A DNA stretch of 57,584 nucleotides from Lentisphaeria bacterium. GTDB taxonomy: Bacteria > Verrucomicrobiota > Lentisphaeria > Oligosphaerales > Oligosphaeraceae. Location of the stretch: contig JAEDMH010000001.1 in NCBI GenBank assembly GCA_016303095.1, positions 1 through 57,584 of the forward strand, in the 5' to 3' direction. Of this stretch, positions 12,378-39,806 are shown in pieces; positions within the stretch are counted from its first letter, which is position 1; each line of letters starts with the position of its first letter. The notes below the pieces were generated by a model. The model did no database searches, was not told where the DNA came from, and saw only the letters and a program-made list of their open reading frames with translations. The position numbers and the translations under genes are program-made.

Positions 12378-14363
12378 CTAGAGGGCGTCCTGCACTTCCT
12401 GGCGGAAGGAGAGGGCGGGCAGGCCCGCCTGGTTGACCAGATTCCCTTCGGGCAAGTCCACCTTGCCGTTGTATTGGCAGAGGACGGGATGGGGGACTTC
12501 CGGATGGGAGAGGAGGAGTTCCTCTCCCTGGAGGGTGGCCTGGGCAGGGCGGAGGATGCCGTCCTTTCCCGCCATCTCGAAGCCTGCCAGGGGCTGTCCG
12601 TCCTTGGCGTGGAGCCCCTTCCCGTAGAGGAAATGGAGGCGGAGGGAGGCGCCTTCCCGGGTCACCCGATCCAGGGTTGGGCCCTGGGGCAGAACGCCCT
12701 CTTCCCCATAGAGATTGGCCAGGGCCAGGAGGAAGAGCCGGTATCCGAAGGAGCGCTTGTCATGGGGGTGGATGTCCGTGGGCTCGAAGAGGGCCAGATC
12801 CGTGGCGGTGATGACGCCCGTCTCCGGGGTCTCCAGGAAGACCCTCCGCTGGGCATCCTGAATCTTCAGCCAGTTTTCGGGATGGAGATCCCGGTAGTTG
12901 GCCAGCTGGACGAAATAGAAGGGGAAGTCCTCCCGCTGCCCCCAGGCGTGGCGCCAATCCTCAATGAGATCCCGGAAGCGCATGGCGTAGAGGGCGGTGG
13001 TTTCGTCGGTGTCCGCATCGTTCTCTCCCTGGTACCAGAGGACTCCCCGAATGGGGAAGGGGATCAGGGGGCGGATCTTGTTGTCGAAGAGGCGATGGGG
13101 GGAATTTCGGCAGCAGATGGGGTTGGCGGCCTGTTCCGGTCCTCCCAGGGGTTGGAAGGCGTACTCCGGCCAGGCCTTCCAGAGGGTGTCGGCCAGGGGG
13201 AGGGTTTCTCCCGTGGTCAGGTTCTCCAGGAAGTAGGCCCGCTTGGAGCCGGTGAAGCCGGCGTCGAAGAAGAAGCAGTAAGCCCGGATGGCCACCACGT
13301 TGCGTCCCGCCTTCACCGCCTGGGGAGGCACGGGGTAGTTCCGGGGGGTGCACCAATACTGGGTGTCGAATCCCGTCCCCGTGGCGCCCACCTGCACCCC
13401 GTTGAAATAGGTCACGTCGTGCTTGTCCACGCCTCCCAGATGGAGCATCAGGGGTTGGCCTTCCCAGGAGGGGGGCAGGGTCACTTCCCGGCGCACCCAG
13501 AGGGACCCGTGGCTGGAGATCTTCTGGATGATCCAGGAACCGGGAACTTCCATGGTCTTCCAGGAGGAGTCGTCATAGTCCGGATTGGCGTAGCCCAAGG
13601 CGAATCCCCGGTTGCCCGGATCCATCTGGGTGATATGGTCGAAGCATTGGTTGTCCTCGTTGATGCAGTCGGGGAAGGAGGCGTGGGTCTCCAGGCAATC
13701 CCAGGACTCCGGGCGGTAGACGCAGGCATCGTCCTTCTCCAGAAGCTTGTAGTTTTCCGGGCGTCGGGAGAGGGTCTCCCGGCTGGTCCACGCGTGGACG
13801 AAGGTGCCGCCCCAGGAGGAGTGGATCAGCCCCACGGGAATCTGGGGGAACTTTTGCCGGTGGAAGAGGGCGAACCAGGCGCCGATGGCGGTGAAGCCGG
13901 CGGCTGTGTCGGGAGAGGAGAGCTGCCATTCCCCTCCGGGCGGCAGGGTCTCCGGACGGGTGGCCAGGGTGTCATTGGGGGTGGTGAAGCAACGGATGAG
14001 GGGGTCGTTGCCCCCCTCCTGCAAATACTGTCCGGTCTGCTCCAGGGGATCCCCGGGGGAAAAGGTCATCAGGGGAAACTCCGCATTGGACTGGCCGGAA
14101 ACCAGCCAGGTCTCCCCCACCAGCAGATCCCGGCAGACACATTCCTCGTTCTTGCAGGTCACCCGGAGCTCCAGGGGGCCGCCCTCCGCCAGAGAGGGGA
14201 AACGCAGCTCAAAGCGGCCGTCCCAGGAGCTGGGGGCGTAGGCGGAGAGGGATCCCAGGGTGGCATGGACCATGGCGCGGGGGGTGTCGCACCAGCCCCA
14301 GACGACGATGGGCTTGTTGCGTTGGATGACGGCGTGGTCGGACCAGATGGCGGGCAGTCTCAT
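12378..14363 (-). CDS. Sialate O-acetylesterase-like carbohydrate esterase
   Basis: MRLPAIWSDHAVIQRNKPIVVWGW N-terminus plus LVSGQSN, WYQGEND and a C-terminal beta-sandwich, as in the SASA/9-O-acetylesterase family. Confidence 0.75.
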   Translation of the reverse strand: MRLPAIWSDHAVIQRNKPIVVWGWCDTPRAMVHATLGSLSAYAPSSWDGRFELRFPSLAEGGPLELRVTCKNEECVCRDLLVGETWLVSGQSNAEFPLMTFSPGDPLEQTGQYLQEGGNDPLIRCFTTPNDTLATRPETLPPGGEWQLSSPDTAAGFTAIGAWFALFHRQKFPQIPVGLIHSSWGGTFVHAWTSRETLSRRPENYKLLEKDDACVYRPESWDCLETHASFPDCINEDNQCFDHITQMDPGNRGFALGYANPDYDDSSWKTMEVPGSWIIQKISSHGSLWVRREVTLPPSWEGQPLMLHLGGVDKHDVTYFNGVQVGATGTGFDTQYWCTPRNYPVPPQAVKAGRNVVAIRAYCFFFDAGFTGSKRAYFLENLTTGETLPLADTLWKAWPEYAFQPLGGPEQAANPICCRNSPHRLFDNKIRPLIPFPIRGVLWYQGENDADTDETTALYAMRFRDLIEDWRHAWGQREDFPFYFVQLANYRDLHPENWLKIQDAQRRVFLETPETGVITATDLALFEPTDIHPHDKRSFGYRLFLLALANLYGEEGVLPQGPTLDRVTREGASLRLHFLYGKGLHAKDGQPLAGFEMAGKDGILRPAQATLQGEELLLSHPEVPHPVLCQYNGKVDLPEGNLVNQAGLPALSFRQEVQDAL

Positions 14364-14560
14364 GGTAAGGAAGAGGAAAGGGAAGGGGGCGGTGTGGGTG
14401 GGGGGAGAAGGAGGCGGGGGGGCCTCGTCTTCTGGGGTTCAGGGGAAAGTCAGGGGAGAAATATAATCAAAGTAGGCGGAACGTAGGGGGAGAAATTGGG
14501 GCTAAATTAGGCCTCGTGCCTTGGGGCGGACGGCCTCAGGGGCAGGGAGACATTGGTACC

Positions 14561-29043: not shown

Positions 29044-30423
29044 ATGCTCTCCGCCTATCTGAATTGCTTTAAGATTCCGGAATTGAGAAAGCGCCTCTTC
29101 TTCACCTTCGCCATGATTGCGCTGGTGCAGCTGGCGGCCGCCATCCCCTGTCCGGGGATTGATCCCGCCCGCTTGAAGGAGCTCTTCGGCAATCTGAACA
29201 GCGATGCGGGCGCCTCGGGCATCATGGGCATGCTGAATCTTTTCAGCGGCGGAGCCATGGAGAAGTTTGCCATTGGCGCCTTGGGCATCATGCCCTACAT
29301 CTCCGCTTCCATCATTCTTCAGCTCATGACTCCCGTCATTCCTGCCCTGAGCAAGATGACCCGGGAAGGAGAGAGTGGAATGCAGCAATACAATTTCATC
29401 ATGCGCTTGTTGACGGTGGGCGTGGCCATTGTCCAGGGCGTGATGTTCTCCATGGCCATGATGGAACCCTCCCGGGTGGGCCTGGGAAATGTCTCCGTGG
29501 TGTCCAATCCCGGCGCGGGCTTCATCCTGCAAACGGTCATCATCCTTACGGGCGGCTCCATGTTCATCACCTGGCTGGGGGAGATGGTGACAGAGCGGGG
29601 CGTGGGAAATGGCGCCTCTCTCATCATCACCGTGAATATCGTGGCGAGAATCCCCAGCGCCCTGGTGAGTCTCTATCAAATGGTCTTCATGGGCAGCGCC
29701 ACCGGAGAAAGCCAGCTGACCATTCTCCATCTCCTGATCCTGGTTGTCCTCTTTGTTGCGGTGACGGTGGGCGCCATCGTCCTCACGGAAGGCATGCGGA
29801 AGATTCCCGTGCGCTATGCCCAGCAGCGCTCCATGGGATTCCTGGGCCGCTCCACCGGGGTGCAGACGACCTATCTCCCTCTCCGGGTCAACTACGCCAA
29901 CGTGATGCCCATCATCTTCGCCGGCGCCATCCTTTCCTTTGTGGAAATGGGAATCCGCTATCTCCCCTTGAATGGGGTCACCCAGTGGATCAGCACCAAG
30001 TTGGCCTATGGCTCCCCCAGCTATCTGGTGATCTACGCCGCCCTCCTTCTCCTCTTCTCCTTCTTCTGGGTGGCCAACCAGTTCAACCCTATCCAGATCG
30101 CCGATGATTTCCAGAAGAACAACGGCTACATCCCCGGCATCCGCCCCGGCAAGCCCACCAGCGATTTCCTGGATCACGCCATGACCCGCATTACCCTGGC
30201 CGGCGCCATCGGCTTGCTGATCCTGGCCATCCTGCCTATGGTTCTGGCTACCTCTTTCCTGAAAATCCCCCATACCATCGCCCAGTTCTTCGGCGGCACC
30301 AGCCTCCTCATCATTGTGGGCGTGATGTTGGATACCATGCGGCAGATCCAAACCTACCTCATCAGCCGCAACTATGATGGATTCCTCTCCAAGGGAATCC
30401 TCCGGAACGGACGGACGATGTAG
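29044..30423 (+). CDS. secY: Preprotein translocase subunit SecY
   Basis: 459 aa and 10 TM helices. IPELRKRLFFT, GIMPYISASII, GGTSLLI and VGVMLDT motifs. Confidence 0.95.
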   Translation: MLSAYLNCFKIPELRKRLFFTFAMIALVQLAAAIPCPGIDPARLKELFGNLNSDAGASGIMGMLNLFSGGAMEKFAIGALGIMPYISASIILQLMTPVIPALSKMTREGESGMQQYNFIMRLLTVGVAIVQGVMFSMAMMEPSRVGLGNVSVVSNPGAGFILQTVIILTGGSMFITWLGEMVTERGVGNGASLIITVNIVARIPSALVSLYQMVFMGSATGESQLTILHLLILVVLFVAVTVGAIVLTEGMRKIPVRYAQQRSMGFLGRSTGVQTTYLPLRVNYANVMPIIFAGAILSFVEMGIRYLPLNGVTQWISTKLAYGSPSYLVIYAALLLLFSFFWVANQFNPIQIADDFQKNNGYIPGIRPGKPTSDFLDHAMTRITLAGAIGLLILAILPMVLATSFLKIPHTIAQFFGGTSLLIIVGVMLDTMRQIQTYLISRNYDGFLSKGILRNGRTM

Positions 30424-30454
30424 ACCCACGGCCCATCCCCCAACGAGCTTTCAA

Positions 30455-30493
30455 GGGCGGACATGCTCCAGCATGCCCGCCCTTCTTTTTTTT
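30455..30493 (+). terminator. Strong rho-independent terminator after secY
   Basis: GGGCGGACATGC (30455-66) pairs with GCATGCCCGCCC (30471-82): 12 bp, one mismatch, 4-nt loop. It is followed by TTC plus a T8 run (30486-93). Confidence 0.8.
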
Positions 30494-30585
30494 CAGGGAC
30501 ATGGATATCTCAGGATTCCCGCTCCTCCCAACGGCAAGAAAAATGATTCCCTACGCCGCATGGATAGGAGATCGATATGCAATTC

Positions 30586-30689
30586 GCTGAAAACGCATGA
30601 AAAGGAAAGAACAATCTTGATTTCTTAAAAAATTTTTCTATAATACCCTTGTTCCGCTTCGGATTTTCCCGTTGCCCATCTTTCTCTCC
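30586..30689. repeat. Promoter/5'UTR cassette, copy 1 (~104 nt, AT-rich)
   Basis: Aligns without gaps to 31631..31734 with only a few substitutions (gctgaaaaYgca..ggaaagaacaatcttgatttcttaaaa..ttctataata..gttccgcttYggattttcccgttgcccatctttctctcc). Confidence 0.8.
30617..30644 (+). promoter_or_regulatory. Near-consensus sigma70-type promoter TTGATT-N16-TATAAT driving paralog P1
   Basis: TTGATT at 30617-22 and TATAAT at 30639-44, separated by an AT-rich spacer. GAAGGAG RBS at 30692-98 lies 5 nt before ATG 30704. Confidence 0.55.
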
Positions 30690-30703
30690 CTGAAGGAGCA
30701 TTG

Positions 30704-31621
30704 ATGTCCATGAGGCCGGTTCTTTGTCTTTCCCTTCTTTGTTGCTTCCTGTTTCTGGGTGGTGCCGAAGAGGACTACCGTGCCCATTTGGAGAAGGCCT
30801 TTGAGGTGATGGCCACTCGCACCATGGAGTATCAACACGCGGTGGGCATGGGGAAAGGGAGAAAGAAAGTGGTTTTCTACCAGATTCTTCAGGAGGGGAG
30901 GGCAGATGGTAGTGTTGTCCGCAGGGAGAGGAGACTTGGGCCGCTGGAAAAGACACCCCGGGAGAAGTTCCCTCTTGGGGCCTTTACTTTTGAATCCTAT
31001 TTCACGGACGAGGGATTTACCAAAGTGTATATCAGTCGAGAAAAACGAAGGGGAATACGGATGAAGCAATCGATTCCCCACCGGAGAATCCCTGCGGAAG
31101 CGAGAGTGTCGGGTCAGGTGGAACAACAGGGAGATGAGGCGTGCTGGAAGATTCAGGTGAAATGGCCGAAGGATGAATCGGGTGTGGAACGGAGGAGTGA
31201 ATATCTCGTTTCCCAGAGGGAATCTGTCCTTTATCGAGAAAGGGATTTTGATGGAAACGGACGTCTCCAGATGGAGGTAAAAAATGAGAATTTCAATTTC
31301 CATCCCCAGTCCTCACAGAAGGAATTTCGTCTCCCCCCATTGGATGAAATCCATTTTGCCAAGAATGCCCAGGAATTTTCAGAGATGTGTCAGAACGTGA
31401 CCTGGGAAATTGTCCAGGAGGCCATTCCGGAGTCCCGGGGAGGGACGAGAAAGAGCCCCTTGGCGAGGAAAGAGGGCTTTTCCCTTCGTTCCTGGCGACG
31501 CCTTCACCGTTCTCCCGTGCGGTCCGCTACCTGTGGCGTTCTGCTTCTGGCGGTGCTCTCCTTGGGCACCGCCCTGGCGCTGAAAAGTCGGAGTAAAAGG
31601 GGCGTATCGGTCGACCAATGA
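30704..31621 (+). CDS. Island paralog P1: signal peptide, ~230-aa periplasmic domain (LolA/RseB-like fold suspected), C-terminal TM helix and basic tail
   Basis: [21 protein letters not shown] signal. Family motifs YFTDEGFTKVYIS, ACWKI, RESVLYRERDFDGNG and NFNFHP..FRLPP. C-terminal [23 protein letters not shown]. Protein-level homology to four other ORFs in the island. Confidence 0.85.
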   Translation: MSMRPVLCLSLLCCFLFLGGAEEDYRAHLEKAFEVMATRTMEYQHAVGMGKGRKKVVFYQILQEGRADGSVVRRERRLGPLEKTPREKFPLGAFTFESYFTDEGFTKVYISREKRRGIRMKQSIPHRRIPAEARVSGQVEQQGDEACWKIQVKWPKDESGVERRSEYLVSQRESVLYRERDFDGNGRLQMEVKNENFNFHPQSSQKEFRLPPLDEIHFAKNAQEFSEMCQNVTWEIVQEAIPESRGGTRKSPLARKEGFSLRSWRRLHRSPVRSATCGVLLLAVLSLGTALALKSRSKRGVSVDQ

Positions 31622-31630
31622 GGGCCATTT

Positions 31631-31734
31631 GCTGAAAATGCAAAAAAAGGAAAGAACAATCTTGATTTCTTAAAATTTTTTTCTATAATACTTTTGTTCC
31701 GCTTTGGATTTTCCCGTTGCCCATCTTTCTCTCC
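31631..31734. repeat. Promoter/5'UTR cassette, copy 2
   Basis: Second copy of the 30586..30689 cassette, located upstream of the rhodanese-led operon. Confidence 0.8.
31662..31689 (+). promoter_or_regulatory. Near-consensus promoter TTGATT-N16-TATAAT driving the rhodanese-to-pseudopilin operon
   Basis: TTGATT at 31662-67 and TATAAT at 31684-89. Same geometry as copy 1. Confidence 0.55.
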
Positions 31735-31768
31735 TTCTTCGATGAGACAAGAGGTTAGGGAGGCAGAA

Positions 31769-32248
31769 ATGAAAATTCTACGGTGTCAGTCCATCCGAGA
31801 GTGCCTTTTGATTCTCCTCGTGGGAAGCCTTTGCCTGGGAAGTTTCTGGGACGGAGCGCAGGGGCGCAGGATGTCAGTGCCTAGGGAACGGCCTCGACAG
31901 AAGCAGGCGGACGCCATTGATCTTGTGGGGGTGCTGGGGTTGCTCCAGCAGTATGAGGATCGAGTGCTCCTGGTGGACGTGCGTCCCCGCCCGCAATATG
32001 AGACAGGACATATTCCTTACTCCTGCCCGGCCTATCCTCCCAGTTGCACCTGCGAACTGAGCCAGGAACTCTTGGAGCAGGGAAAGAAAGCGGATTTTGT
32101 GGTGGCGCTGGGGGTGCGGGGACAAGATTTTTCTCCTTTTCTCGCTCATTTCTCCCAGGAGGCTCGTTGCCCCGTGTTTCTTTACGAGGGAGGAATTTCC
32201 GAATGGAAGGGATGTGGCCTTCCTTGGGAGGGGGAGAAAGCAGAATGA
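31769..32248 (+). CDS. Exported rhodanese-homology-domain protein (no Cys in the expected catalytic loop)
   Basis: ATG 31769 after GAGGTTAGGGAGG. Signal/anchor CLLILLVGSLCLGSFW. Rhodanese blocks LLVDVRPRPQYETGHIP, FVVALGVRGQD and LYEGGISEW. The upstream TTG-start part of ORF 31694 is the duplicated noncoding cassette. Confidence 0.7.
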   Translation: MKILRCQSIRECLLILLVGSLCLGSFWDGAQGRRMSVPRERPRQKQADAIDLVGVLGLLQQYEDRVLLVDVRPRPQYETGHIPYSCPAYPPSCTCELSQELLEQGKKADFVVALGVRGQDFSPFLAHFSQEARCPVFLYEGGISEWKGCGLPWEGEKAE

Positions 32249-32667
32249 AACAGGGCCTCTTTCGCGGTGTGGCATGGGGACGCCGGGTGACTTGTCTCCT
32301 TTCTCTGCTGTTGCTTTTGAAGGGACCGGGACGCTTTGTGGAACTGGGGACGATCCTGGGCGCCTGGCCACTGGGGGCCTTGGCCTACATTCTTCTGGCC
32401 GGATACAGCGCCCTGTGGTGCGCCCGCCTGTGGTGCGGAACCCTTTCCCCGGGGGATAAGGGAGGAATGGCCTGCTCCCTGATCCTCTCCCTGTGTGTCC
32501 TGGCCATGGCCTTCGCTCCCTCTCTTCAGGCCTGCCACTGTGTTTCCTGGAATCCAGCTCAACTCTTCAGCCCCTACTGGAGATTTCTCCTGTGGTCAGG
32601 GTTGTGGCTAGGGGCAGAGATTCTTTCCTGCTGGTGGTTCACGCACAAAAAAGGAGATGTCCCATGA
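32245..32667 (+). CDS. Small 4-TM membrane protein with loop cysteines (MauE/DoxX-like or DsbB/VKOR-like, tentative)
   Basis: 140 aa with ATGA overlaps at both ends. Four hydrophobic helices. WCARLWC (CX4C) follows helix 2 and ACHC (CXC) follows helix 3. Pairing with a rhodanese is typical of MauE-family proteins. Confidence 0.6.
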   Translation: MKQGLFRGVAWGRRVTCLLSLLLLLKGPGRFVELGTILGAWPLGALAYILLAGYSALWCARLWCGTLSPGDKGGMACSLILSLCVLAMAFAPSLQACHCVSWNPAQLFSPYWRFLLWSGLWLGAEILSCWWFTHKKGDVP

Positions 32668-32897
32668 AACGAATCCTGCTTCTTCTTTCTTTTGTCCTGG
32701 TTGGAGTCTTGTTTCACCTCTTCTCCGAGGAAGTGGTCATTAGTTGCCAGGCACGGTGCTATGACCTTTACCAAGCGTATTACGAAGATTGCTGGGTCGC
32801 ATACTGGAATGACTGGGATGCGGCGCGGGACTGCGTGGATAAGATTGACGCAATGCGGGCGAAATGTGTGGCCAATTGTGAGCCAGAAGAGAATTAG
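32664..32897 (+). CDS. Small secreted six-cysteine protein A (CX3C-X10-C-X13-C-X10-CX3C)
   Basis: 77 aa. AAGGAG RBS 7 nt upstream and ATGA overlap with the preceding gene. Signal MKRILLLLSFVLVGVLFHLFS. The Cys scaffold is shared with ORF 38488..38754. Confidence 0.7.
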   Translation: MKRILLLLSFVLVGVLFHLFSEEVVISCQARCYDLYQAYYEDCWVAYWNDWDAARDCVDKIDAMRAKCVANCEPEEN

Positions 32898-32919
32898 CAG
32901 TTTTTACCCAGGAGCGTAG

Positions 32920-33797
32920 ATGTCCATGAGGCCGGTTCTTTGTCTTTCCCTTCTTTGTTGCTTCCTGTTTCTGGGTGGTGCCGAAGAGGACTACCGTGTC
33001 CATTTGGAGAAGGCCTTTGAGGTGATGGCCACCCGCACCATGGAGTATCGGGAACTGGTGGGGATGGGGAAGTGGGGAAGAAGCAAGATGAAGGTCTATC
33101 AATGTCAGAAGCCAGACGGACGCACCCTCCGGGTGGAGAAGGGATCGTGGAATGAGAAATGGGAACCCCGGGAGAAATTGCCTCCCGGGGTATCGGATAC
33201 TCACTTCTATTATACCGACGAGGGGTTTACCTACGTGTATGTCAGCCGGGAGAAGATTCGTGGCATCCGCATGAAGCAAGGAATCCCCCGAAAGAAGGTG
33301 GAGCCGGGGGACAAAATCACGGGCAAAACGGATGAGGAGGTGGACGGGTTCCCCTGCTGGATCATCCGGAGGGATAGGGGCAAGAAAGCCGAAGGGGCGG
33401 TGAAGGTGGAGGAATATGCCGTGGACAAGGAGAGTTTTGTCATTCGCCGGGAGCGTGCCTTCAATGAGAATGGAGGGCTGCTTATGGAACGGAAGCGAAT
33501 CAACTTTCTCTTCTCTCCTGTCTTTGAAGAGGGACTGTTTCAAGTGCCTCCCCTGGATGAAATCGCCTTTGCCAAAGATGCCTGGGAAGAGGTGGAACAT
33601 GTCAAGAAGTTCTCTTGGGAGATTGTCCAGGAGGCCATTCCGGAGTCCCAGGGAGGGACAAGAAAGAGCCCCCTAGCGAGGAAAGAGGGCTTTTTCCTTC
33701 GTTCCTGGCGACGCCTTCGCCGTTCTCCCGTGCGGGCCGCTACCTGTGGCGTTCTGCTTCTGGCGGTCCTCTCCCTGGGCACCGCCCTGGCGCTGAA
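32920..33797. repeat. 878-bp direct repeat, copy 1 (covers P2)
   Basis: Near-identical to 34848..35725 at an offset of 1928 bp. The encoded proteins are identical until about residue 250. Only a handful of substitutions were seen by eye. Confidence 0.85.
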
Positions 33798-33834
33798 AAG
33801 CCGAAGGAAAAGGGGCGTATCGGTCGACCAATGA
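32920..33834 (+). CDS. Island paralog P2
   Basis: The signal and first ~43 aa are almost identical to P1. Motifs [35 protein letters not shown] and NFLFSP..LFQVPP. C-terminal TM plus KSRRKR tail. AGGAG RBS. Confidence 0.85.
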   Translation: MSMRPVLCLSLLCCFLFLGGAEEDYRVHLEKAFEVMATRTMEYRELVGMGKWGRSKMKVYQCQKPDGRTLRVEKGSWNEKWEPREKLPPGVSDTHFYYTDEGFTYVYVSREKIRGIRMKQGIPRKKVEPGDKITGKTDEEVDGFPCWIIRRDRGKKAEGAVKVEEYAVDKESFVIRRERAFNENGGLLMERKRINFLFSPVFEEGLFQVPPLDEIAFAKDAWEEVEHVKKFSWEIVQEAIPESQGGTRKSPLARKEGFFLRSWRRLRRSPVRAATCGVLLLAVLSLGTALALKSRRKRGVSVDQ

Positions 33835-33981
33835 GTGCCAAGTTTCTTCTTGGCTCTGAGGAAAGATTCCTTTTTCGAGAATTTCTGTTGAGGCTTCAAA
33901 GTTTTTTGCATGGTTCATTTTCTTCTTCACCATTCGTGGACTGGTTTTTGCCCCTCATGGGGCATGAGAATCTGAAACATC

Positions 33982-34857
33982 ATGTCCTTTCTTCGCTGTC
34001 TATTTTGGTTTTTCCTGAGTGGGGGTGTTCTGATTGCCCAGGAGGATTTTGGGGCGCACCTGCGTCTTGCCTCTGAGGTGATGGCCACAGCCACCATGCG
34101 CTATACGCGGACGGTGCGCATGGGGATGCCTGGGGGGCGGGGAGAACTTTCCTATGATGTGATTCAGGAGATGCAGCCTCATGGCACCCTGTTTCGAAGA
34201 GAGGAGTTGATGCATGAAGGGCGTCTTCTCCGTCGGGAGTCCCTGCGGGGAATCCAGGAAATCCAGCGGATCTATTACACAGACCAAGGGGAAAGCATCG
34301 TCTTTATCTCCGCAAGGTCGGTGCGCACCATATGCACTCCCGAGGCGGTTCGCCGGCTGACGTTCACTTCCGAGAGTCAATTCTCGGGAAAGGAGATCAC
34401 CTATGCCGGAGTCCCCTGCTGGGAAATCCATCACACACTAAAATGGCAAGGCAAGTCCCTTCCCCGGGACTACATCGTGGAAAAGGAAAGTCATGTCATT
34501 CGACGAGAAAGGCTTCTGGATGAGGATGGCCGCATGCTCAGCGAAACGACGTACGGAAACTTCTCCTTTGCGCCTCAGGTCTCTCCAGGACTTTTTCAGC
34601 CTCCCGCTCCAGATGTCCTATTCTTTGCCCGAACTCCCGAGGAATTGGGAGAGGCCTATCGTGGAGTGACAGAAGCGCGCACTCAGGATTTTTTGAGTGA
34701 AAAGAGCCGGAATCTGCCACGTCCTGTGGTCAAAGGCAGGAGCCGAATTTCTGCCTTTTTGAGGGGGAGGGTGGTCTTGGTGGCGGGAAGTCTCCTTTGC
34801 TTCGTGGCAGCCGTCGTCTTGAAGGGACTTCGAAAAAAAAGGAGACAATGTCCATGA
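33982..34857 (+). CDS. Island paralog P3 (divergent)
   Basis: Signal MSFLRCLFWFFLSGGVLIA. Motifs YYTDQGESIVFIS, VPCWEI, KESHVIRRERLLDEDG and NFSFAP..LFQPP. C-terminal TM plus LRKKRR tail. Overlaps the P4 start by 10 nt. Confidence 0.8.
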   Translation: MSFLRCLFWFFLSGGVLIAQEDFGAHLRLASEVMATATMRYTRTVRMGMPGGRGELSYDVIQEMQPHGTLFRREELMHEGRLLRRESLRGIQEIQRIYYTDQGESIVFISARSVRTICTPEAVRRLTFTSESQFSGKEITYAGVPCWEIHHTLKWQGKSLPRDYIVEKESHVIRRERLLDEDGRMLSETTYGNFSFAPQVSPGLFQPPAPDVLFFARTPEELGEAYRGVTEARTQDFLSEKSRNLPRPVVKGRSRISAFLRGRVVLVAGSLLCFVAAVVLKGLRKKRRQCP

Positions 34858-35725
34858 GACCGGTTCTTTGTCTTTCCCTTCTTTGTTGCTTCCTGTTTCT
34901 GGGTGGTGCCGAAGAGGACTACCGTGTCCATTTGGAGAAGGCCTTTGAGGTGATGGCCACCCGCACCATGGAGTATCGGGAACTGGTGGGGATGGGGAAG
35001 TGGGGAAGAAGCAAGATGAAGGTCTATCAATGTCAGAAGCCAGACGGACGCACCCTCCGGGTGGAGAAGGGATCGTGGAATGAGAAATGGGAACCCCGGG
35101 AGAAATTGCCTCCCGGGGTATCGGATACTCACTTCTATTATACCGACGAGGGGTTTACCTACGTGTATGTCAGCCGGGAGAAGATTCGTGGCATCCGCAT
35201 GAAGCAAGGAATCCCCCGAAAGAAGGTGGAGCCGGGGGACAAAATCACGGGCAAAACGGATGAGGAGGTGGACGGGTTCCCCTGCTGGATCATCCGGAGG
35301 GATAGGGGCAAGAAAGCCGAAGGGGCGGTGAAGGTGGAGGAATATGCCGTGGACAAGGAGAGTTTTGTCATTCGCCGGGAGCGTGCCTTCAATGAGAATG
35401 GAGGGCTGCTTATGGAACGGAAGCGAATCAACTTTCTCTTCTCTCCTGTCTTTGAAGAGGGACTGTTTCAAGTGCCTCCCCTGGATGAAATCGCCTTTGC
35501 CAAAGATGCCTGGGAAGAGGTGGAACATGTCAAGAAGTTCTCTTGGGAGATTGTCCAGGAGGCCATTCCGGAGTCCCAGGGAGGGACGAGACAGAGCCCC
35601 CTAGCGAGGAAAGAGGGCTTTTTCCTTCGTTCCTGGCACCGCCTTCGCCGTTCTCCCGTGCGGGCCGCTACCTGCGGCGTTCTGCTTCTGGCGGTCCTCT
35701 CCCTGGGCACCGCCCTGGCGCTGAA
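34848..35725. repeat. 878-bp direct repeat, copy 2 (covers P4)
   Basis: See 32920..33797. Confidence 0.85.
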
Positions 35726-35762
35726 GATGGGGAAGAGAAAAGAAAACCAGGAGGTCCTATGA
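34848..35762 (+). CDS. Island paralog P4 (near-copy of P2 with a different extreme C-terminus)
   Basis: ATG 34848 after a GGAG RBS. Translation matches P2 apart from a few residues, plus a tail of [13 protein letters not shown] in place of LKSRRKRGVSVDQ. Confidence 0.85.
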
Positions 35763-36595
35763 GAGCAAAGAATCGATTCGCCACAGAACGGGCCAGGACG
35801 GGGCGTGCCTTTACCCTGGTGGAGTTGTTGACGGTCATGGGCATCATCGGCATCTTGGCCTCTCTGCTGTTGGGGGCGGTGTCCACGGCCCGGGGGCATG
35901 CCCGGCGGGCCGCCTGTCTGAACAACCAGCGGCAGACCCTGCTGGCCATGCAGATGTATGCGGGGGACTACAATGGCAACATGATGGTCTGCGCCGGCTT
36001 CAACGAGAATGACGTGTGGGCCTACAAGGCGGTGCTGGGCACCTCTTCCGACTGGCGGAAGCAGGCGATAGAACGCTATGGGCGTGCCCTGGGAGGAAAA
36101 TTCTCCCTGGGGTATCTTCCGGAGGAGGCCACCAGCTGTCCCAATGGCCACTTTGTTTCCTGGCGCACCACCTGGTGCTATGCCACTCCCCAGACCCATC
36201 GGGTCTGGCCTCTGGCCTATGGCGCCCTGGAGGGGGTGGTGACCCTGAAGGGATTCGACCAGATCTTCCGGTTTGACAGCTCCCCCCTCTCCGCCTCTCG
36301 CACGTATGTGTTGAGCGATTCCTGCTTTGCCGAGCAGTCGAAGATCACCTACAATGGATACAAGCCGGATGTGGAGACCTATCGCATGCACACCGGCTCC
36401 TCCGGCGCTGACGAACTGGCCGCGGCCCGCCATGGACGGAAGATCAATGTGGGCTTCTGGGATGGCCACGGAGAATCCATGGACTGCCAGTCTGCCGCCG
36501 AACTTTTCTCCAAAGGCACCAAATCCACGGTCACCTACATCTTTGTGGATGGAGTATTGGAGGAGTTCGAAACCTCCGGAAGCCTGGAGGATTAG
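35759..36595 (+). CDS. Prepilin-type N-terminal cleavage/methylation protein with H-X9-DG C-terminal motif (pseudopilin-like)
   Basis: [24 protein letters not shown] class-III signal and [13 protein letters not shown] (H-X9-DG). AGGAGG RBS and ATGA overlap with the P4 stop. Confidence 0.85.
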
Positions 36596-36766
36596 CCACT
36601 CTGTCTTTTCCTCCGGAGAGGTTTTTTCCGGGGGAAAGGGGGAATTTGGGAGGATTCGGGAGGCCAAGCCGGGAAAAAGGGACACATTACCCTGCATTCG
36701 TCTTCTCAAAGCCAGGGAAGTCCCATTCCCTCATGTTGCGTTGCCATCTTCCATTCCACCATCGTC

Positions 36767-38248
36767 ATGGAGTATTACTATCAGGGACAGTTGAGACTTC
36801 AGCTCTTTGGGGGCTCTCCCAACGTGACAGCCACCGTGCTTCTCTTTGCTTTCTTCCTGGTGCTGGGAGGAGTGGCCTTTGCCCGCCAGCGCATTCCGGG
36901 AAAACGCTGGCTTTGGGCAGGGGTGCCAGGATATCTTCTGTGTCTCCTGCTCCTGGAGGGATTGTTTCTTACCTATTCCCGGGGAGGCATGGTGGCCCTG
37001 GCCGTGGGATTGCTCTTCCTGGTCTGGAAAGAATGGCGCCTCCTGATTCCTCTCCTGGTGCCGGGACTCCTCCTGCTGGCCTTTACCCCTGCGGGCCTGA
37101 ATCGGGTCAAGGCGGTGGGAAATCTCCAAGACCGCTCCATCGGAAACCGGCTGATTCTCTGGTATCATGGATCGGGGATGATTCTGGACTATTGGAAGAA
37201 AGGGGTGGAGGTGGAGGCCTGCGGCACCCATTATACAAAATGGTATAAACCATTGGAGCAGAAGGTGGAAGGATATCGCGGCATGGTGAACGGGTATTTG
37301 ACCTACATGGGCAACCACGGATTGCCCAAGGCTTTCCTGGTCTTCTGGGGACTCTTCTTCCTGGTCTGCTGCACCCTGGATCTGGGCTATCTCAGGAATA
37401 TGCCCTTCTACCGATGTCTGGGGGCGGGAATGCTCTCCATGGCGGTCTGCGAGGTCTTCAGCACCATGTTCATCTTCCCCTCCATCCGGTGGTGCATGGG
37501 AATCGGCGGCGCCCTTGCCTTGGCAGGATTCCTCTGGAGCCATCGGGATGTCTGGCGCCGGCAGGCGGGGGCGCTGGCGACTCTGGGAAGAAGATTCGCA
37601 AGGCTGGCAGGCGCCGGTGCCCTCCTGGCTCTTCTCCCTCTTCTTGTGGTGGCGGTGATGGGATCCCTCGCCCGCCGAGAACAGTATTACCGCAGAACCA
37701 CGGGAACCCTGTCTCTGGATGGGAAGACGATGGCCTTTCAGCAATTCACGGCGAATCATCCCAATGGACGATGGATTCTCCATCTGGCGGGAAATGTGGA
37801 GGAGGAGGCCCGCAGCCGCATCCTGCCTCTGTGCCAAGCCGGCTACGGAGTTCTTTCCCTGGAAGGGGCAGAGAGATGGTCCTCCGAGGAAATGGATCGA
37901 AGACTCCCCTTGCTCCTGGCAAGACGGGAAAATCCCCCGTTCTCCGTTCTGATGGTTTCCGGAGGCCTGCCTGCCAATTGCGTTTTCCGTAGGTTCTGCG
38001 AAAAACGCCCGGAGAACATCTCGTGCCTGGTGCTCTGGGAACCCATTTGGCAACATCCCATGGAGGAGTATTCCCTGGAAGCCATGGACATTCCCGAAGG
38101 AGGCCACGTCCTGTTCCTGGAGGACGAGGAATGGGGACATTCCATGGGGGAAGCCTATGGAAAGACCCAGAAAGAAGAACGTGCAATCCAGGTTCCCTCG
38201 GGAGACCAGCTGGCCGAGGCCCTGGGAACCGCCTTGGAGGAACACTGA
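36767..38248 (+). CDS. Short O-antigen-ligase-like (Wzy_C-type) membrane protein with a soluble C-terminal domain
   Basis: About 8 TM helices. LTYSRGGMVALAVGLLFL resembles the Wzy_C core. It seems to lack the first ~4-5 helices of typical WaaL/Wzy_C proteins. The C-terminal ~190 aa are soluble and alpha/beta-like, with no clear GxSxG. Confidence 0.6.
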   Translation: MEYYYQGQLRLQLFGGSPNVTATVLLFAFFLVLGGVAFARQRIPGKRWLWAGVPGYLLCLLLLEGLFLTYSRGGMVALAVGLLFLVWKEWRLLIPLLVPGLLLLAFTPAGLNRVKAVGNLQDRSIGNRLILWYHGSGMILDYWKKGVEVEACGTHYTKWYKPLEQKVEGYRGMVNGYLTYMGNHGLPKAFLVFWGLFFLVCCTLDLGYLRNMPFYRCLGAGMLSMAVCEVFSTMFIFPSIRWCMGIGGALALAGFLWSHRDVWRRQAGALATLGRRFARLAGAGALLALLPLLVVAVMGSLARREQYYRRTTGTLSLDGKTMAFQQFTANHPNGRWILHLAGNVEEEARSRILPLCQAGYGVLSLEGAERWSSEEMDRRLPLLLARRENPPFSVLMVSGGLPANCVFRRFCEKRPENISCLVLWEPIWQHPMEEYSLEAMDIPEGGHVLFLEDEEWGHSMGEAYGKTQKEERAIQVPSGDQLAEALGTALEEH

Positions 38249-38256
38249 GGCTTCCC

Positions 38257-38279
38257 CGCAGACCACACAGTAATGCCCT
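38257..38279. repeat. 23-nt direct repeat, left copy (CGCAGACCACACAGTAATGCCCT)
   Basis: Matches 39717..39739 with 2 mismatches. It also forms the 5' side and loop of a hairpin (CCCCGCAG 38254-61 pairs with CTGCGGGG 38278-85). Confidence 0.6.
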
Positions 38280-38393
38280 GCGGGGCCACAGGCTTTCAAC
38301 AGGGAGCACACGGAATCCACGCTGGGCGGGGCGCGGAGACCCCAGAGGGGCGGTCCATGCACCCCGCACGTCCCGCTTCTGGGGGAGGGAGCC

Positions 38394-38417
38394 TCTCTAG
38401 AATCTCTAGAATCTCTC
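38394..38417. repeat. TCTAGA-core tandem repeat, left (TCTCTAGAA x2 plus TCTCTC)
   Basis: Read directly from the sequence. Two XbaI-type palindromes sit 9 nt apart, about 70 nt upstream of small Cys protein B. Confidence 0.7.
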
Positions 38418-38487
38418 GCCCCTGGTGTTCGACGAAAAATCCACACCACGTGTACTCAATCAGAAAACCAAACAAGGAGGAAGCCCC

Positions 38488-38754
38488 ATGAAAGGTGTTC
38501 TTGTTTCTCTTGTCTTTGTTCTCCTCGGTACAGGGCTGGCCCTAAGTCGAACCATGGTCCTCGCCGAACAGAATGAATTGTGCCGGTTGGCCTGTAATAA
38601 GAATGACAATGATCAAGTCGCGATTTGCAATCGGGAGTTTGGTGCTGGCGGCCCCCAGGAGAGTGAAGAGAGGAGGTTGGCTTGTCTCCTTGCCGCCGAC
38701 AAATCTTGGCGTTTATGCATGTCCGGTTGTTCTGATGCGGAGGTTGACAGATGA
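38488..38754 (+). CDS. Small secreted six-cysteine protein B (CX3C-X10-C-X18-C-X10-CX3C)
   Basis: 88 aa. AAGGAGG RBS 7 nt upstream. Signal MKGVLVSLVFVLLGTGLALS. Same Cys spacing as protein A except for the central loop. ATGA overlap with the P5 start. Confidence 0.7.
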   Translation: MKGVLVSLVFVLLGTGLALSRTMVLAEQNELCRLACNKNDNDQVAICNREFGAGGPQESEERRLACLLAADKSWRLCMSGCSDAEVDR

Positions 38755-39701
38755 GACGGGAAGAAAGGCATAAGGGCGTTCTGGCCTGGTTTTCCCCGAG
38801 GTGGAGAGGAATTTGCCGCACCTGGTTTGGGTGGGCCCTGATTCTTTGTTTGATGGCGGGGCAGGGGGCAGGGGGGGAGGAGCAGGATTGGGAAAGACTC
38901 CTTCGGGAGGCGGAGGCAACCATGCGACAGGCCACCATGACCTTCCGGCAACGGATCGGCCTGGGGAATGCCTCCTCCCAAACCAAGACGGAGGTGCTGG
39001 TATGGCAGAAAGGGGCTGGCGATGGCACGGTGCAACGGAGGATGGAGATTGCGGGAACGGGGTCTCAACCGGAGAACCTGCGGGGAGGACAGATGCTTTT
39101 CCGCACCTACTACAACGACCAGGGAAGAACGGAGGTGATTTTCTGGCAGGACAAGTGCTGGGGCATTCGCGTCCCCGCCGCCATCCCCCGATTTTTCCCG
39201 GAGACCCCGGCCCTGTTCTCCGGCAAGGAAAGTCTTTTTCACGAATATCCTTGCTGGGAAATCACCCGACACTACCAGGATAAAAACGGAAATGCCCTGC
39301 AGGATGTCTATCAGGTGGATCGGGAACACCGCGTCATTCGCCAAATGCGCTCCTTTAACGCCCAGGGAATGCCCACCTTCGCCTGCACCTACGAGGATTT
39401 CGATTGGCACCCCACCTTCCCTCCTGAACTCTTCCAACTGCCTCAGAAACTCCAGCTCTCTCTGGCGAAAAACGAGGAGGAGTTCACAAAAAAGAAAAGC
39501 CAGGCGATGGAGGAACTGACCAGGGAATGGAATCGGCGAGAAAAGGGGCGCAAAAACATCCCCTCTTTTCCTTGGCAAGAACGATGGAAAAGACGGATGA
39601 GGCATGCCTCTGGGCGCTTCGCACTCCTTGGCCTGGCCTTAGGATCCTTCCTCCTCCTGGGGCTGGGGATCGCCCTGAAGGTCCGGACAAAAAAAATGTG
39701 A
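38751..39701 (+). CDS. Island paralog P5 (most divergent)
   Basis: N-terminal anchor/signal WFGWALILCLMAGQGAG. Motifs YYNDQGRTEVIFW, YPCWEI, REHRVIRQMRSFNAQG and DFDWHP..LFQLP. C-terminal TM FALLGLALGSFLLLGLGIALK plus VRTKKM tail. Confidence 0.8.
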   Translation: MRREERHKGVLAWFSPRWRGICRTWFGWALILCLMAGQGAGGEEQDWERLLREAEATMRQATMTFRQRIGLGNASSQTKTEVLVWQKGAGDGTVQRRMEIAGTGSQPENLRGGQMLFRTYYNDQGRTEVIFWQDKCWGIRVPAAIPRFFPETPALFSGKESLFHEYPCWEITRHYQDKNGNALQDVYQVDREHRVIRQMRSFNAQGMPTFACTYEDFDWHPTFPPELFQLPQKLQLSLAKNEEEFTKKKSQAMEELTREWNRREKGRKNIPSFPWQERWKRRMRHASGRFALLGLALGSFLLLGLGIALKVRTKKM

Positions 39702-39716
39702 GCGCTGCCGCAGGAA

Positions 39717-39739
39717 CGCAGACCACGCAGAAATGCCCT
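39717..39739. repeat. 23-nt direct repeat, right copy (CGCAGACCACGCAGAAATGCCCT)
   Basis: See 38257..38279. Here it sits only 3 nt before the TCTAGA repeats. Confidence 0.6.
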
Positions 39740-39742
39740 TAT

Positions 39743-39766
39743 TTCTAGATCTCTAGATTTCTAGAT
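39743..39766. repeat. TCTAGA-core tandem repeat, right (YTCTAGAT x3)
   Basis: TTCTAGAT CTCTAGAT TTCTAGAT. Shares the 9-mer ATCTCTAGA with the left repeat (38402-10 versus 39749-57). Confidence 0.7.
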
Positions 39767-39806
39767 TTTCGCAGGCGGGGTGTCTCCGGGGTGTTGCCGG
39801 GCGAGC

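Follow-up and report, generated by a model that had tools for sequence, protein, structure and literature searches.

Disulfide-stapled helical hairpins in described proteins

Alpha-helical hairpins that are stapled by disulfides (the small Tims, the CHCH proteins, the alpha-hairpinins of plants, and some animal toxins) have been described almost exclusively in eukaryotes. The small Tims form a hexameric chaperone complex in the mitochondrial intermembrane space and are oxidized by Mia40/Erv1; the spacer between the two CX3C motifs of a small Tim is about 11 to 16 residues. The saposins are also small, all-helical, and often acidic: they have six cysteines with nested disulfides (C1-C6, C2-C5, and C3-C4) and bind lipids, and their domains have about 80 amino acids and four to five helices. 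In the small Tims, the twin CX3C motifs lie on antiparallel helices and form nested disulfides, with C1-C4 as the outer and C2-C3 as the inner bond (PMC3759932). The small Tims are oxidized after translocation into an extracytoplasmic compartment, and the reduced proteins bind Zn2+ 1:1 (PMC3759932). The alpha-hairpinins have the motif C1XXXC2-(X)n-C3XXXC4 and form an alpha1-turn-alpha2 hairpin with antiparallel helices and nested disulfides; these disulfide-stapled hairpins are antimicrobial in plants (PMC4695807).

A small gene with six invariant cysteines

We analyzed a window of 57,584 nucleotides from a Lentisphaeria bacterium of the family Oligosphaeraceae (contig JAEDMH010000001.1). A preliminary description of this window had singled out a small gene. 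Its features are:

32653..32656, + strand: Shine-Dalgarno sequence GGAG of the small gene, 7 nt 5' of the ATG
32664..32897, + strand: small six-cysteine gene; 77-amino-acid precursor, with residues 1-21 as a putative signal peptide

The gene translates to MKRILLLLSFVLVGVLFHLFSEEVVISCQARCYDLYQAYYEDCWVAYWNDWDAARDCVDKIDAMRAKCVANCEPEEN, followed by a stop codon. Its cysteines are at positions 28, 32, 43, 57, 68, and 72, with gaps of 3/10/13/10/3, so the mirror-symmetric scaffold that had been described is real. The good ribosome binding site is also as described, as is the coupling to the upstream cysteine-containing membrane protein: the start codon at 32664 and the TGA (32665-32667) that ends the upstream 140-amino-acid ORF overlap in the sequence ATGA (32664-32667). 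The N terminus (K2 and R3, a stretch of 17 hydrophobic residues, and a small amino acid at position 21) fits a putative Sec-type signal peptide, in agreement with the preliminary description, and position 21 is A, S, or G in all of the relatives. We rejected a Tat signal because, although one relative has SRRRG, the RR is not conserved; we also rejected a lipoprotein signal because the protein lacks a lipobox. The mature protein would have about 56 amino acids, a pI of 4.05, and a net charge of -8, and it is rich in Tyr and Trp (8 of 56 residues are aromatic). The mature pI is between 4 and 5 in every member of the family.

The cysteine pattern in the window cannot be due to chance: six-frame translation yields two strict matches, as compared to 3e-4 expected, and none of 200 shuffles contained one. 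Both matches are ORFs with signal peptides that lie immediately 5' of a gene from the partner family (described below). Relatives at 32-90% identity retain all six cysteines with a spacing of 3/10/(13-16)/10/3, so the homologs that the preliminary description had called for do exist. These include about 10 protein clusters at 32-45% identity, all with the six cysteines. Their sources are all gut Lentisphaerota (Oligosphaeraceae or Lentisphaeraceae) or gut metagenomes. In an alignment of 15 diverged sequences, the six cysteines are the only invariant columns, and Y36, Y39, E23, and V25 are nearly invariant. More broadly, predicted helix 1 (residues 22-46) is conserved, while variation is found in the loop and on the outer face of helix 2 (residues 47-67). 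The ratio dN/dS is 0.1-0.4 overall, 0.08-0.17 for helix 1, and 0.14-0.8 for the loop and helix 2.

Short ORFs can arise by chance in a GC-rich genome, and this one is small and is of a kind that gene callers sometimes miss, as at locus L016. However, its reading frame is conserved under purifying selection, it has a ribosome binding site and translational coupling, it is present on at least 176 blocks of the collection, and its cysteines are invariant across the 15 diverged sequences. The probability that it is a chance ORF is negligible; it is a real gene for a putative exported protein.

The protein does not match any family in Pfam, NCBIfam, PDB, PADLOC, or PHROG, which agrees with the statement in the preliminary description that no described family could be recognized. 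A profile search against PDB sequences gave no matches at E ≤ 10. The sole Pfam match at E ≤ 1 (LPAM_1) is spurious, and so is a match to P0007, a 498-amino-acid repeat protein (E = 5e-4), as only residues 17-40 match, via a repeated 'VISCKTRCY'. No confirmed relative was found in JGI metagenome contigs (searched with the profiles of the small protein and of its partner) or in IMG/VR. A tblastn search against plasmids and phages gave no related sequence, and we therefore set aside an origin from mobile elements. In the literature, we found no paper on this family and none on how disulfides form in the Lentisphaerota. Overall, these proteins are a previously undescribed family of gut Lentisphaerota.

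A predicted hairpin with three rungs

The preliminary description had proposed structure prediction as a check. AlphaFold2, run on the single sequence, predicts an antiparallel hairpin (pLDDT 82.7) with helices at residues 2-49 and 51-72; the turn, at residue 50, is the exact mirror point of the cysteine pattern. When we compared this model to known structures with Foldseek, we found only generic helical hairpins with E > 2 (PspA/ESCRT-III, the DHp domain of DesK, and designed bundles), which say nothing about function.

The X3 and X10 spacings fit an 11-residue repeat in which the cysteines take positions a and e and line one face of each helix. In helix 1, these positions are C28(a), C32(e), Y39(a), and C43(e); in helix 2, they are C57(a), I61(e), C68(a), and C72(e). 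At 3.67 residues per turn, all of the cysteines, Y36/Y39, V/I61, and I65 fall within an arc of about 100 degrees, on one face per helix. This geometry is compatible with a predicted ladder of three disulfides. In our model, the precursor would be cleaved after Ser21, before Glu-Glu, and the mature protein would fold into an antiparallel two-helix hairpin. From the a and e positions we infer that the helices would be joined by nested rungs (C28-C72, C32-C68, and C43-C57), along with one conserved hydrophobic rung (Y39 with V/I61). The gut Lentisphaerota are anaerobes. The host is probably a strict gut anaerobe, so the cysteines might remain reduced.

The downstream gene encodes a predicted LolA/RseB-like partner

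The gene that follows the small gene is:

32920..33834, + strand: cognate partner gene; 304 amino acids; starts 22 nt past the small gene and has its own AGGAG

The partner has a signal peptide and a conserved helix at its N terminus, followed by a LolA/RseB-like domain of 12 strands; the chain then continues with C-terminal helices and ends in a membrane-spanning anchor with a basic tail. The best Foldseek matches for its AlphaFold2 model (pLDDT 75) are RseB, MucB, and LolA, with E values of 1.4e-8 to 1e-6, probabilities of 1.0, and TM scores of 0.4-0.6 on the target. The match to Pfam's LolA_like family (PF17131) is weak (E = 0.016; 15.3 bits, with a cutoff of 30), and one relative matches with E = 0.006. 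Otherwise, the partner matched no family above threshold in Pfam, NCBIfam, PADLOC, or PHROG. The only helices in the model are residues 25-38 and those past residue 221, with no internal lid helices. The predicted fold is an unclosed LolA-like beta-barrel.

Among the informative loci, by which we mean those with at least 160 nt of sequence downstream of the small gene, all 40 small genes are followed by a match to the partner family within 32-134 nt. This linkage to a gene for a protein of about 300 amino acids with a predicted LolA/RseB fold and a membrane anchor at its C terminus is new here. The preliminary description had expected true relatives to adjoin 'P-family' genes, and all 40 do. 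It had also highlighted the upstream membrane protein and had not recognized the downstream gene as the informative partner. Because the small gene is always encoded just ahead of the partner, the two proteins probably work together in the cell envelope. The small protein is most likely a stapled small subunit or a ligand of the partner, and it is the linkage of the genes that suggests binding. The divergence of the small proteins is correlated with that of their partners (Mantel r = 0.68, p = 0.001), although this correlation is confounded by shared descent. Across strains, the pairing of small-protein variants with specific partner variants is suggestive but not consistent.

Tandem cassettes beside rplK

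The window contains four other members of the partner family and a second small gene:

30704..31621, + strand: partner paralog; 305 amino acids; 5' of the rhodanese gene; without a small gene
33982..34857, + strand: partner paralog; 291 amino acids; without a small gene
34848..35762, + strand: partner paralog; 304 amino acids; near-duplicate of 32920..33834
38488..38754, + strand: second small six-cysteine gene; 88 amino acids, exported; ribosome binding site AAGGAGG; found by the pattern scan
38751..39701, + strand: second partner; 316 amino acids; ATGA overlap with 38488..38754; just 5' of rplK

Of the five partner genes in the window, two are paired with a small gene and the other three stand alone, so a partner evidently does not need a small gene to exist. 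The second copy of the motif, which the preliminary description missed, has the pattern C-x3-C-x10-C-x18-C-x10-C-x3-C. Neither hhalign (E = 0.039) nor an HMM showed homology between this protein and the main family; its membership rests on the spacing of its cysteines, its signal peptide, and its position. The second partner is 29% identical to the product of 32920..33834 and shares its invariant columns. The second pair (38488..39701) recurs on one further contig (L027).

Pairs of small gene and partner have been duplicated as units at L008 and L016, and an array may contain up to four diverged copies of the small gene. At the head of the array there is usually a gene for a rhodanese-like protein that lacks the catalytic cysteine, along with one for a membrane protein with a conserved Cys-His-Cys motif. 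It is flanked by secY or nusG on one side and by rplK on the other, and the location next to rplK is common to two families of Lentisphaerota. The cassettes are conserved at their ends and variable in the middle, and strains whose flanks are 92-97% identical differ by gains and losses of cassettes. In these arrays, small gene and partner make up diversifying cassettes that lie in tandem beside rplK. Two copies of the small gene, at L016, were not called in the NCBI annotation of a metagenome-assembled genome (MAG).

Two upstream genes with CXC motifs

Three features lie upstream of the small gene:

31662..31689, + strand: candidate promoter, TTGATT-16-TATAAT (10 of 12 consensus positions match)
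31769..32248, + strand: rhodanese-domain protein; 159 amino acids; N-terminal membrane anchor or signal sequence
32245..32667, + strand: putative multi-pass membrane protein with a CHC motif; 140 amino acids; ATGA overlap with both neighbors

The first is a candidate promoter for an operon of rhodanese-like protein, membrane protein, small protein, and partner; the number of such promoter-like sites is not above the expectation from shuffling. It lies in a 111-nt repeat (31624-31734) whose other copy is at 30579-30689.

The rhodanese-homology domain is clear (PF00581, E = 5.5e-10, 40 bits with a cutoff of 22.2). It lacks the catalytic cysteine: the cysteine of 'LTCGSS' in domain 4 of 1yt8 aligns to the leucine in 'VVALGVRGQD', and relatives have leucine or phenylalanine at this position. 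Its invariant motifs are C93-T-C95-ELS, GVRGQDFS, and C149-GLPWE. A rhodanese-like gene is found 5' of the small gene at L002, L003, L008-L012, L019-L021, L023, L025, and L026.

The rhodanese ORF overlaps the ORF of the 140-amino-acid protein as ATGA at 32245-32248. By hydropathy, the latter protein has one strongly hydrophobic segment and two or three moderately hydrophobic ones, so the four-transmembrane topology that had been proposed is plausible. Its invariant features are C17, C59, C77, C97-H98-C99, GRFVELG, and SPYWR. It has no match in Pfam, NCBIfam, PADLOC, or PHROG. We considered whether it might be an oxidase of the DsbB/VKOR type, but no family in Pfam or NCBIfam matched even at E ≤ 10. 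Also, its conserved motif is CXC (C97-H-C99) rather than CXXC, and the pair C59-x4-C64 is not conserved.

The order of rhodanese-like gene, membrane protein, small gene, and partner is conserved in two families, and it occurs in at least 176 blocks of human and pig gut assemblies in the collection. A dedicated role for the two upstream genes in maturation is weakly supported, because the MAG locus L016 has pairs of small gene and partner with neither a rhodanese nor a membrane-protein gene.

Proposed role and alternative explanations

Our preferred model is that the small protein is a stapled, Sec-exported hairpin that acts as a companion of the LolA/RseB-fold partner within envelope cassettes that are specific to the Lentisphaerota. 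We hold this model tentatively, with a probability of roughly 0.45. The hairpin would be a subunit, a ligand, or a lid acting in trans for the membrane-anchored periplasmic partner. Helix 1, which is conserved and rich in Tyr, would give a constant contact to the partner, and contacts that are specific to each cassette would come from the variable loop and helix 2. The upstream rhodanese-like protein (CTC) and membrane protein (CHC) probably help to oxidize or assemble the hairpin, as their conserved place in the gene order suggests. A broader version of this model is quite unlikely: the four genes would be a self-contained system for stapled hairpins, akin to the mitochondrial disulfide relay. 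The CHC membrane protein and the CTC rhodanese-fold protein would be a dedicated pair of thiol oxidases in an anaerobe that otherwise lacks general disulfide formation in the periplasm. The three-rung hairpin would plug in, in trans, as the missing helical lid of the lid-less LolA/RseB-fold receptors, and hairpin and receptor would co-diversify to give a variable envelope module that binds lipids or other ligands.

Alternatively, the six cysteines could remain reduced in the periplasm as ligands for a metal or cluster (Zn, Cu, Cd, Fe-S, or persulfide); the CX3C pairs would then form a Cys4 site where the hairpin is open, C43/C57 a second site, and the upstream proteins a relay for sulfur or metal. 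The neighboring genes would suit this idea, as one encodes a rhodanese-fold protein and the other a membrane protein that has a CHC motif and conserved cysteines across its membrane segments, and the host belongs to the anaerobic gut Lentisphaerota; there is also a precedent in the 1:1 binding of Zn2+ by the reduced twin CX3C motifs of small Tims (PMC3759932). However, the rhodanese domain lacks its catalytic cysteine, and the loop and helix 2 are highly variable. Also, the signal is of the Sec type and not the Tat type, so the protein should be exported unfolded and without a cofactor. A 1:1 tie to a diversifying partner, with up to four copies per array, would not be expected for metal homeostasis, and we consider metal binding to be unlikely. 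A role as an oligomeric, ATP-independent periplasmic chaperone like the small Tims is very unlikely. Such a chaperone would shield hydrophobic clients such as the C-terminal anchor of the partner or the acyl chains of lipoproteins in transit through the periplasm, which would fit with the abundance of aromatic residues, with the lipid-carrier type of the partner's fold, and with the outer twin CX3C motifs and predicted helix-loop-helix, as in Tim9/Tim10 (PMC3759932). But there is no sequence relationship to Tim10/DDP (Pfam at E ≤ 1, PDB at E ≤ 10), the surface is highly acidic, the stapled helices are almost the whole protein, with no long flexible 'tentacles' beyond the cysteines, and the 1:1 linkage in cassettes points to a specific partner rather than to general chaperone activity.

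The diversity of the cassettes raises another question: could the hairpin be a secreted bacteriocin-like toxin or a signal peptide, with the downstream protein as its immunity protein or receptor? The arrays would then be toxin-immunity cassettes with additional orphan immunity genes, and there are in fact more partner genes than small genes. The tandem cassettes diversify, and they come and go between strains with flanks of 92-97% identity. Allelic changes are concentrated in the exposed loop and in helix 2, with 16 nucleotide differences in codons 46-63 and the C-terminal codon 77 and with 8 nonsynonymous versus 3 synonymous codon changes. Disulfide-stapled alpha-hairpins from plants are antimicrobial (PMC4695807), but those are cationic, whereas the mature peptides of this family are all acidic (pI 4-5). 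Furthermore, dN/dS is below 1, and there is no dedicated exporter, double-glycine leader, or lysis gene. The arrays are at a single housekeeping locus (beside rplK) in two families, tblastn found nothing related on plasmids or phages, and a LolA-fold protein of 300 amino acids would be atypical for immunity. We view a toxin or signal as improbable and prefer the model of a companion to the partner.

Implications

The small gene marks a probable envelope system, so far uncharacterized and specific to the Lentisphaerota, that is built of cassettes of hairpin and LolA/RseB-fold protein. These cassettes lie between genes that rank with the most conserved and most strongly expressed of the cell (secY or nusG on one side and rplK on the other). 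The system varies between closely related gut strains, and this variation points to a function at the cell surface or in interactions at the strain level in the guts of humans and pigs. If the upstream genes do form a dedicated oxidase, then anaerobes would have a previously undescribed way to make disulfides in the periplasm. The hairpin is also attractive as a scaffold for peptide engineering, because it is compact and probably very stable and because its loop and helix 2 accept a high degree of sequence variation. More broadly, as the uncalled copies in the NCBI MAG illustrate, annotation pipelines miss small genes of this kind.

Comparison with known systems

The partner shares its predicted fold with RseB, MucB, and LolA. 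Judging from the titles of the entries 3m4w, 6jau, and 6in9, RseB and MucB are periplasmic proteins whose binding target is a short helical stretch in the periplasmic part of another protein. However, sequence identity is only 7-14%, the partner has its own C-terminal membrane anchor and diversifying paralogs, and no anti-sigma or Lol genes were found near it. As the partner's fold is of the lipid-carrier type, a lipid-related role for the small protein is conceivable. Like the saposins, the small protein has six cysteines and is small, helical, and acidic, but it has 56 amino acids, two predicted helices, and a different spacing, and it does not match SapB from Pfam.

The twin CX9C or CHCH proteins (Cox17, Cox19, and the core of Mia40) are stapled helical hairpins, as is predicted for the small protein, but its spacings are X3 and X10, not X9, and there is no sequence similarity. 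Mia40 has a CPC redox motif (PMC12114033), which is formally similar to the CHC and CTC of the two upstream proteins; a link between these motifs and oxidation is speculation.

The preliminary description had compared the protein to the small Tims. The resemblance holds as an analogy, given the twin CX3C motifs (C28-x3-C32 and C68-x3-C72) on predicted antiparallel helices. It does not extend to a sequence relationship: there was no match to zf-Tim10_DDP or another small Tim in Pfam at E ≤ 1 or in PDB at E ≤ 10. The CX3C motifs are 35 residues apart, as compared to the far shorter spacer in small Tims, and three rungs are predicted instead of two. The small protein is bacterial and has a Sec signal peptide and one specific partner gene, whereas the import of small Tims is driven by Mia40.

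The small protein also has the cysteine motif and the predicted helix-loop-helix of the alpha-hairpinins (EcAMP1, MBP-1, Luffin P1, and VhTI). Those are plant peptides of 30-50 amino acids that are rich in Lys and Arg, have two disulfides, and often derive from multimodular precursors, whereas the small protein is bacterial and acidic (pI 4.05), has six invariant cysteines, and is made as its own Sec precursor. The small protein is analogous, not homologous, to the small Tims and the alpha-hairpinins: it represents a bacterial family of predicted hairpins with a third rung and with the clean logic of an 11-residue repeat.

A two-gene cassette in a variable array

The main new result concerns the genomic context of the small six-cysteine gene. 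In all 40 fetched loci whose downstream sequence extends for 160 nt or more, a gene of the partner family (about 300 amino acids) lies 32-134 nt downstream of the small gene. The preliminary description had proposed looking for relatives beside partner-family genes in other loci, which is what these 40 informative loci show. It had also placed the small gene downstream of a four-transmembrane cysteine protein: that upstream coupling stands, but it is not the whole context, given the downstream partner. The genes discussed here are:

31769..32248 (+), rhodanese gene
32245..32667 (+), gene for a 140-amino-acid membrane protein
32664..32897 (+), small six-cysteine gene (small-1)
32920..33834 (+), cognate partner gene
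38488..38754 (+), second small exported six-cysteine ORF (small-2), C-x3-C-x10-C-x18-C-x10-C-x3-C
38751..39701 (+), partner-5 (316 amino acids), overlapping small-2 as ATGA, directly upstream of rplK

The two-gene cassette, which encodes the hairpin protein and its LolA/RseB-fold partner, sits in a Lentisphaerota-specific, strain-variable array. The gene orders are:

Window, first half: secY, partner paralogue, rhodanese, membrane-protein gene, small gene, three partner genes
Window, second half: HX9DG-type pseudopilin, Wzy_C protein, small-2/partner-5 (ATGA), rplKAJL, rpoBC
Lentisphaeraceae: nusG, rhodanese (167 amino acids), 151-amino-acid membrane protein, three or four pairs of small (85-87 amino acids) and partner (about 298 amino acids) genes, Wzy_C, rplK

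Small and partner genes are duplicated as units in two related loci, L008 and L016 (the latter from a related Oligosphaeraceae MAG), and cassette content varies among strains whose flanks are 92-97% identical. The divergence of small proteins and partners is correlated (Mantel r = 0.68, p = 0.001), a correlation that is confounded by common descent. The 5' ends are near-identical within both families, as are the partner 3' ends, while the middles have diverged, a pattern that points to recombination among cassettes. L016 has none of the rhodanese, membrane-protein, and small-1 genes, nor the small-2 pair; it contains two other small-partner pairs. In locus L019, the rhodanese gene is preceded by a partner gene with a frameshift. 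The array comes after nusG in L019-L024 and the Lentisphaeraceae loci versus secY in the window and L016; therefore, the ribosomal-protein gene clusters are differently arranged.

As a whole, 30400..39800 is highly plastic compared to L016 and L019. A 111-nt direct repeat (30579-30689 and 31624-31734, 91% identical) precedes the first partner gene and the rhodanese operon, and both copies carry a promoter-like TTGATT-16-TATAAT. The array also includes an HX9DG/DUF1559-type pseudopilin (35759..36595), which shares an ATGA overlap at its start with the partner gene before it, and a Wzy_C (O-antigen-ligase-like) membrane protein (36767..38248); both keep their positions within the array in L016, L019, and a third locus, L027. 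Elsewhere in the window, two large putative ORFs (11172..14486, 1104 amino acids, and 6154..7629, 491 amino acids) are unrelated to the small gene and had no Pfam match at E ≤ 0.001.

The small protein and its predicted hairpin

The 77-amino-acid translation of 32664..32897 (+) is MKRILLLLSFVLVGVLFHLFS followed by EEVVISCQARCYDLYQAYYEDCWVAYWNDWDAARDCVDKIDAMRAKCVANCEPEEN. Its cysteines, at positions 28, 32, 43, 57, 68, and 72, are separated by 3/10/13/10/3 residues, which is exactly the symmetric spacing first described. The reported ribosome-binding site and upstream coupling were also recovered: GGAG (32653-32656) lies 7 nt ahead of the ATG, and the start codon overlaps the stop of the 140-amino-acid ORF as ATGA. 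A second ATGA overlap (32245-32248) joins the start of that ORF to the stop of the rhodanese-domain ORF. Translation of the three genes is thus coupled.

Six-frame translation of the window gives two occurrences of the strict cysteine pattern (3e-4 expected); 200 shuffles gave none. The second occurrence, small-2, is likewise a signal-peptide ORF. Sequence profiles did not link small-2 to small-1 (hhalign E = 0.039), so the cysteine scaffold persists where no other sequence signal does. All members have an acidic mature protein (pI 4.0-5.2), and 8 of its 56 residues in the window's copy are aromatic.

AlphaFold2, run on the single sequence (mean pLDDT 82.7), predicts two helices, residues 2-49 and 51-72. 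They meet in a turn at residue 50, about which the cysteine pattern is mirror-symmetric (28+72 = 32+68 = 43+57 = 100). The X3 and X10 spacings can be read as a-to-e and e-to-e steps of an 11-residue repeat (3.67 residues per turn). The register would then be C28(a), C32(e), L35(h), Y39(a), C43(e), and A46(h) in helix 1 and C57(a), I61(e), M64(h), C68(a), and C72(e) in helix 2, with the residues of each helix on one face within an arc of about 100 degrees. This is the arrangement that the predicted disulfide ladder (C1-C6, C2-C5, C3-C4) needs. The antiparallel hairpin originally suggested is supported. The interface would have four rungs, three of them Cys-Cys and the fourth formed by Y39 and V/I61, which would account for the conservation of these residues. 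Foldseek searches with the model returned only generic antiparallel helical hairpins, none of them significant.

Relatives and conservation

Very few relatives emerged from searching 5.8 billion proteins with a word index and 1.84 billion representatives exhaustively with phmmer: two are close (90% and 71% identity) and a few are at 32-45%. After profile search there were nine clusters. One candidate, P0007, was rejected as a spurious match to a repeat protein. The preliminary description did not recognize a described bacterial family, and scans of Pfam, NCBIfam, PADLOC, PHROG, and PDB sequences gave no match. Searches of IMG/VR, JGI metagenome contigs, plasmids, and phages likewise yielded no relatives. 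Of 185,579 species-representative genomes, only an uncultured Lentisphaeraceae MAG and an Oligosphaeraceae MAG carry the small gene; the latter is about 92% identical to the window over housekeeping flanks. This places the origin of the window in a gut Oligosphaeraceae (Lentisphaerota, PVC). At least 176 collection blocks of gut assemblies, human and pig, carry one allele (P0015). Annotation of the family is incomplete: two intact small six-cysteine genes in L016 (9697..9945 and 10869..11114), an NCBI Oligosphaeraceae MAG, are uncalled in the collection's gene table, so database protein counts are lower bounds.

In an alignment of 15 small proteins, only Met1 and the six cysteines are invariant; E23, V25, Y36, and Y39 nearly are. 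The C3-C4 loop has 13, 16, or 18 residues, and the X3 and X10 spacings are retained in every sequence except P0005 (X4 ahead of the last cysteine). By the Nei-Gojobori method, dN/dS is 0.1-0.4 for the mature part, with 0.08-0.17 in helix 1 versus 0.14-0.8 in the loop and helix 2. Helix 1 (RYQAYYxDCxVA) is conserved on all sides; variation lies in the loop and on the side of helix 2 that faces outward. The window differs from allele P0001 at 16 nucleotides: 15 are confined to codons 46-63, and the other lies in codon 77 at the C terminus. Of the codons affected, 8 change non-synonymously and 3 synonymously, and there is no difference across codons 1-45 or 64-76.

The partner and the upstream genes

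The partner model (AlphaFold2 with a 7-sequence alignment, pLDDT 75) comprises a signal peptide, a conserved N-terminal helix, a 12-strand sheet, and long C-terminal helices leading to a transmembrane segment and a basic tail. Its top Foldseek matches in the PDB are RseB, MucB, and LolA (E = 1.4e-8 to 1e-6, probability 1.0), and Pfam LolA_like matches weakly (E = 0.016). The layout and these matches indicate a periplasmic, membrane-anchored protein with a LolA/RseB fold. The C terminus (33650..33834) has a conserved tail built of three parts, which all partner paralogues share, including those at 30704..31621, 34848..35762, and 38751..39701. In order, these parts are a basic stretch containing R-x-(P/S)-x-R, a hydrophobic helix (LSLGTALAL or LCLGTAGVL), and a Lys/Arg cluster. 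This layout resembles C-terminal sorting signals such as PEP-CTERM, with no match to known sorting-signal models. The Cys/His/Arg-bearing membrane protein (32245..32667) could in principle process this tail.

That membrane protein is not of a known family. Residues C17, C59, C77, and C97-H98-C99 are invariant in it, and by our reading of the positive-inside rule the CHC loop should face the periplasm. The product of 31769..32248 has a hydrophobic N-terminal membrane anchor and a rhodanese domain (PF00581, E = 5.5e-10) in which the catalytic cysteine is missing, with Leu or Phe aligned opposite the active-site cysteine of 1yt8. It retains invariant CTCELS, GVRGQDFS (at the lost-cysteine site), and CGLPWE motifs. 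As a periplasmic rhodanese domain, it is likely to be non-enzymatic or non-canonical.

Proposed role and alternatives

We infer that the small protein would be exported by Sec, oxidized into a three-rung hairpin, and then, as a stable small subunit, bound to the LolA/RseB-fold partner encoded alongside it. We give this whole chain a probability of roughly 0.45; the stapled hairpin itself is quite probable. Helix 1 would be the constant partner contact, and the loop and helix 2 the cassette-specific one. Because the modeled barrel region has no internal helices, the aromatic-rich hairpin may serve the partner as a lid or ligand in trans. Given how tightly the genes are coupled and how well their order is conserved, the rhodanese and membrane proteins may mature or assemble the hairpin. 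This is the weakest step, since L016 has small-partner pairs with neither gene at the locus.

The six cysteines might instead stay reduced and bind metal, as small Tims do with zinc in their reduced state (PMC3759932). The cysteine-rich neighboring proteins and a host that is probably an anaerobe would fit, but the cassette logic and the missing rhodanese cysteine make this unlikely. Diversifying cassettes and orphan partners would suit a bacteriocin-like peptide with the partner as its immunity protein; however, the peptide is acidic, there is no exporter, and the locus is a conserved housekeeping one, so we consider this similarly improbable. A general chaperone resembling small Tims is more doubtful still, and a spurious ORF is hardly credible.

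Comparison with known families

The small protein shares with small Tims and plant alpha-hairpinins a CX3C...CX3C motif on an antiparallel helix-loop-helix with nested disulfides, which are predicted here (PMC3759932, PMC4695807). It belongs to neither family: it has no sequence similarity to them, three predicted disulfides instead of two, a long hairpin that is predicted to be fully stapled, an acidic rather than basic composition, a Sec precursor of its own, and a bacterial host. Saposins have a nested 1-6/2-5/3-4 disulfide topology, which the predicted pairing recalls, but the small protein falls short of their length and is predicted to have just two helices. It is a new family in which an established structural principle appears in a new context.
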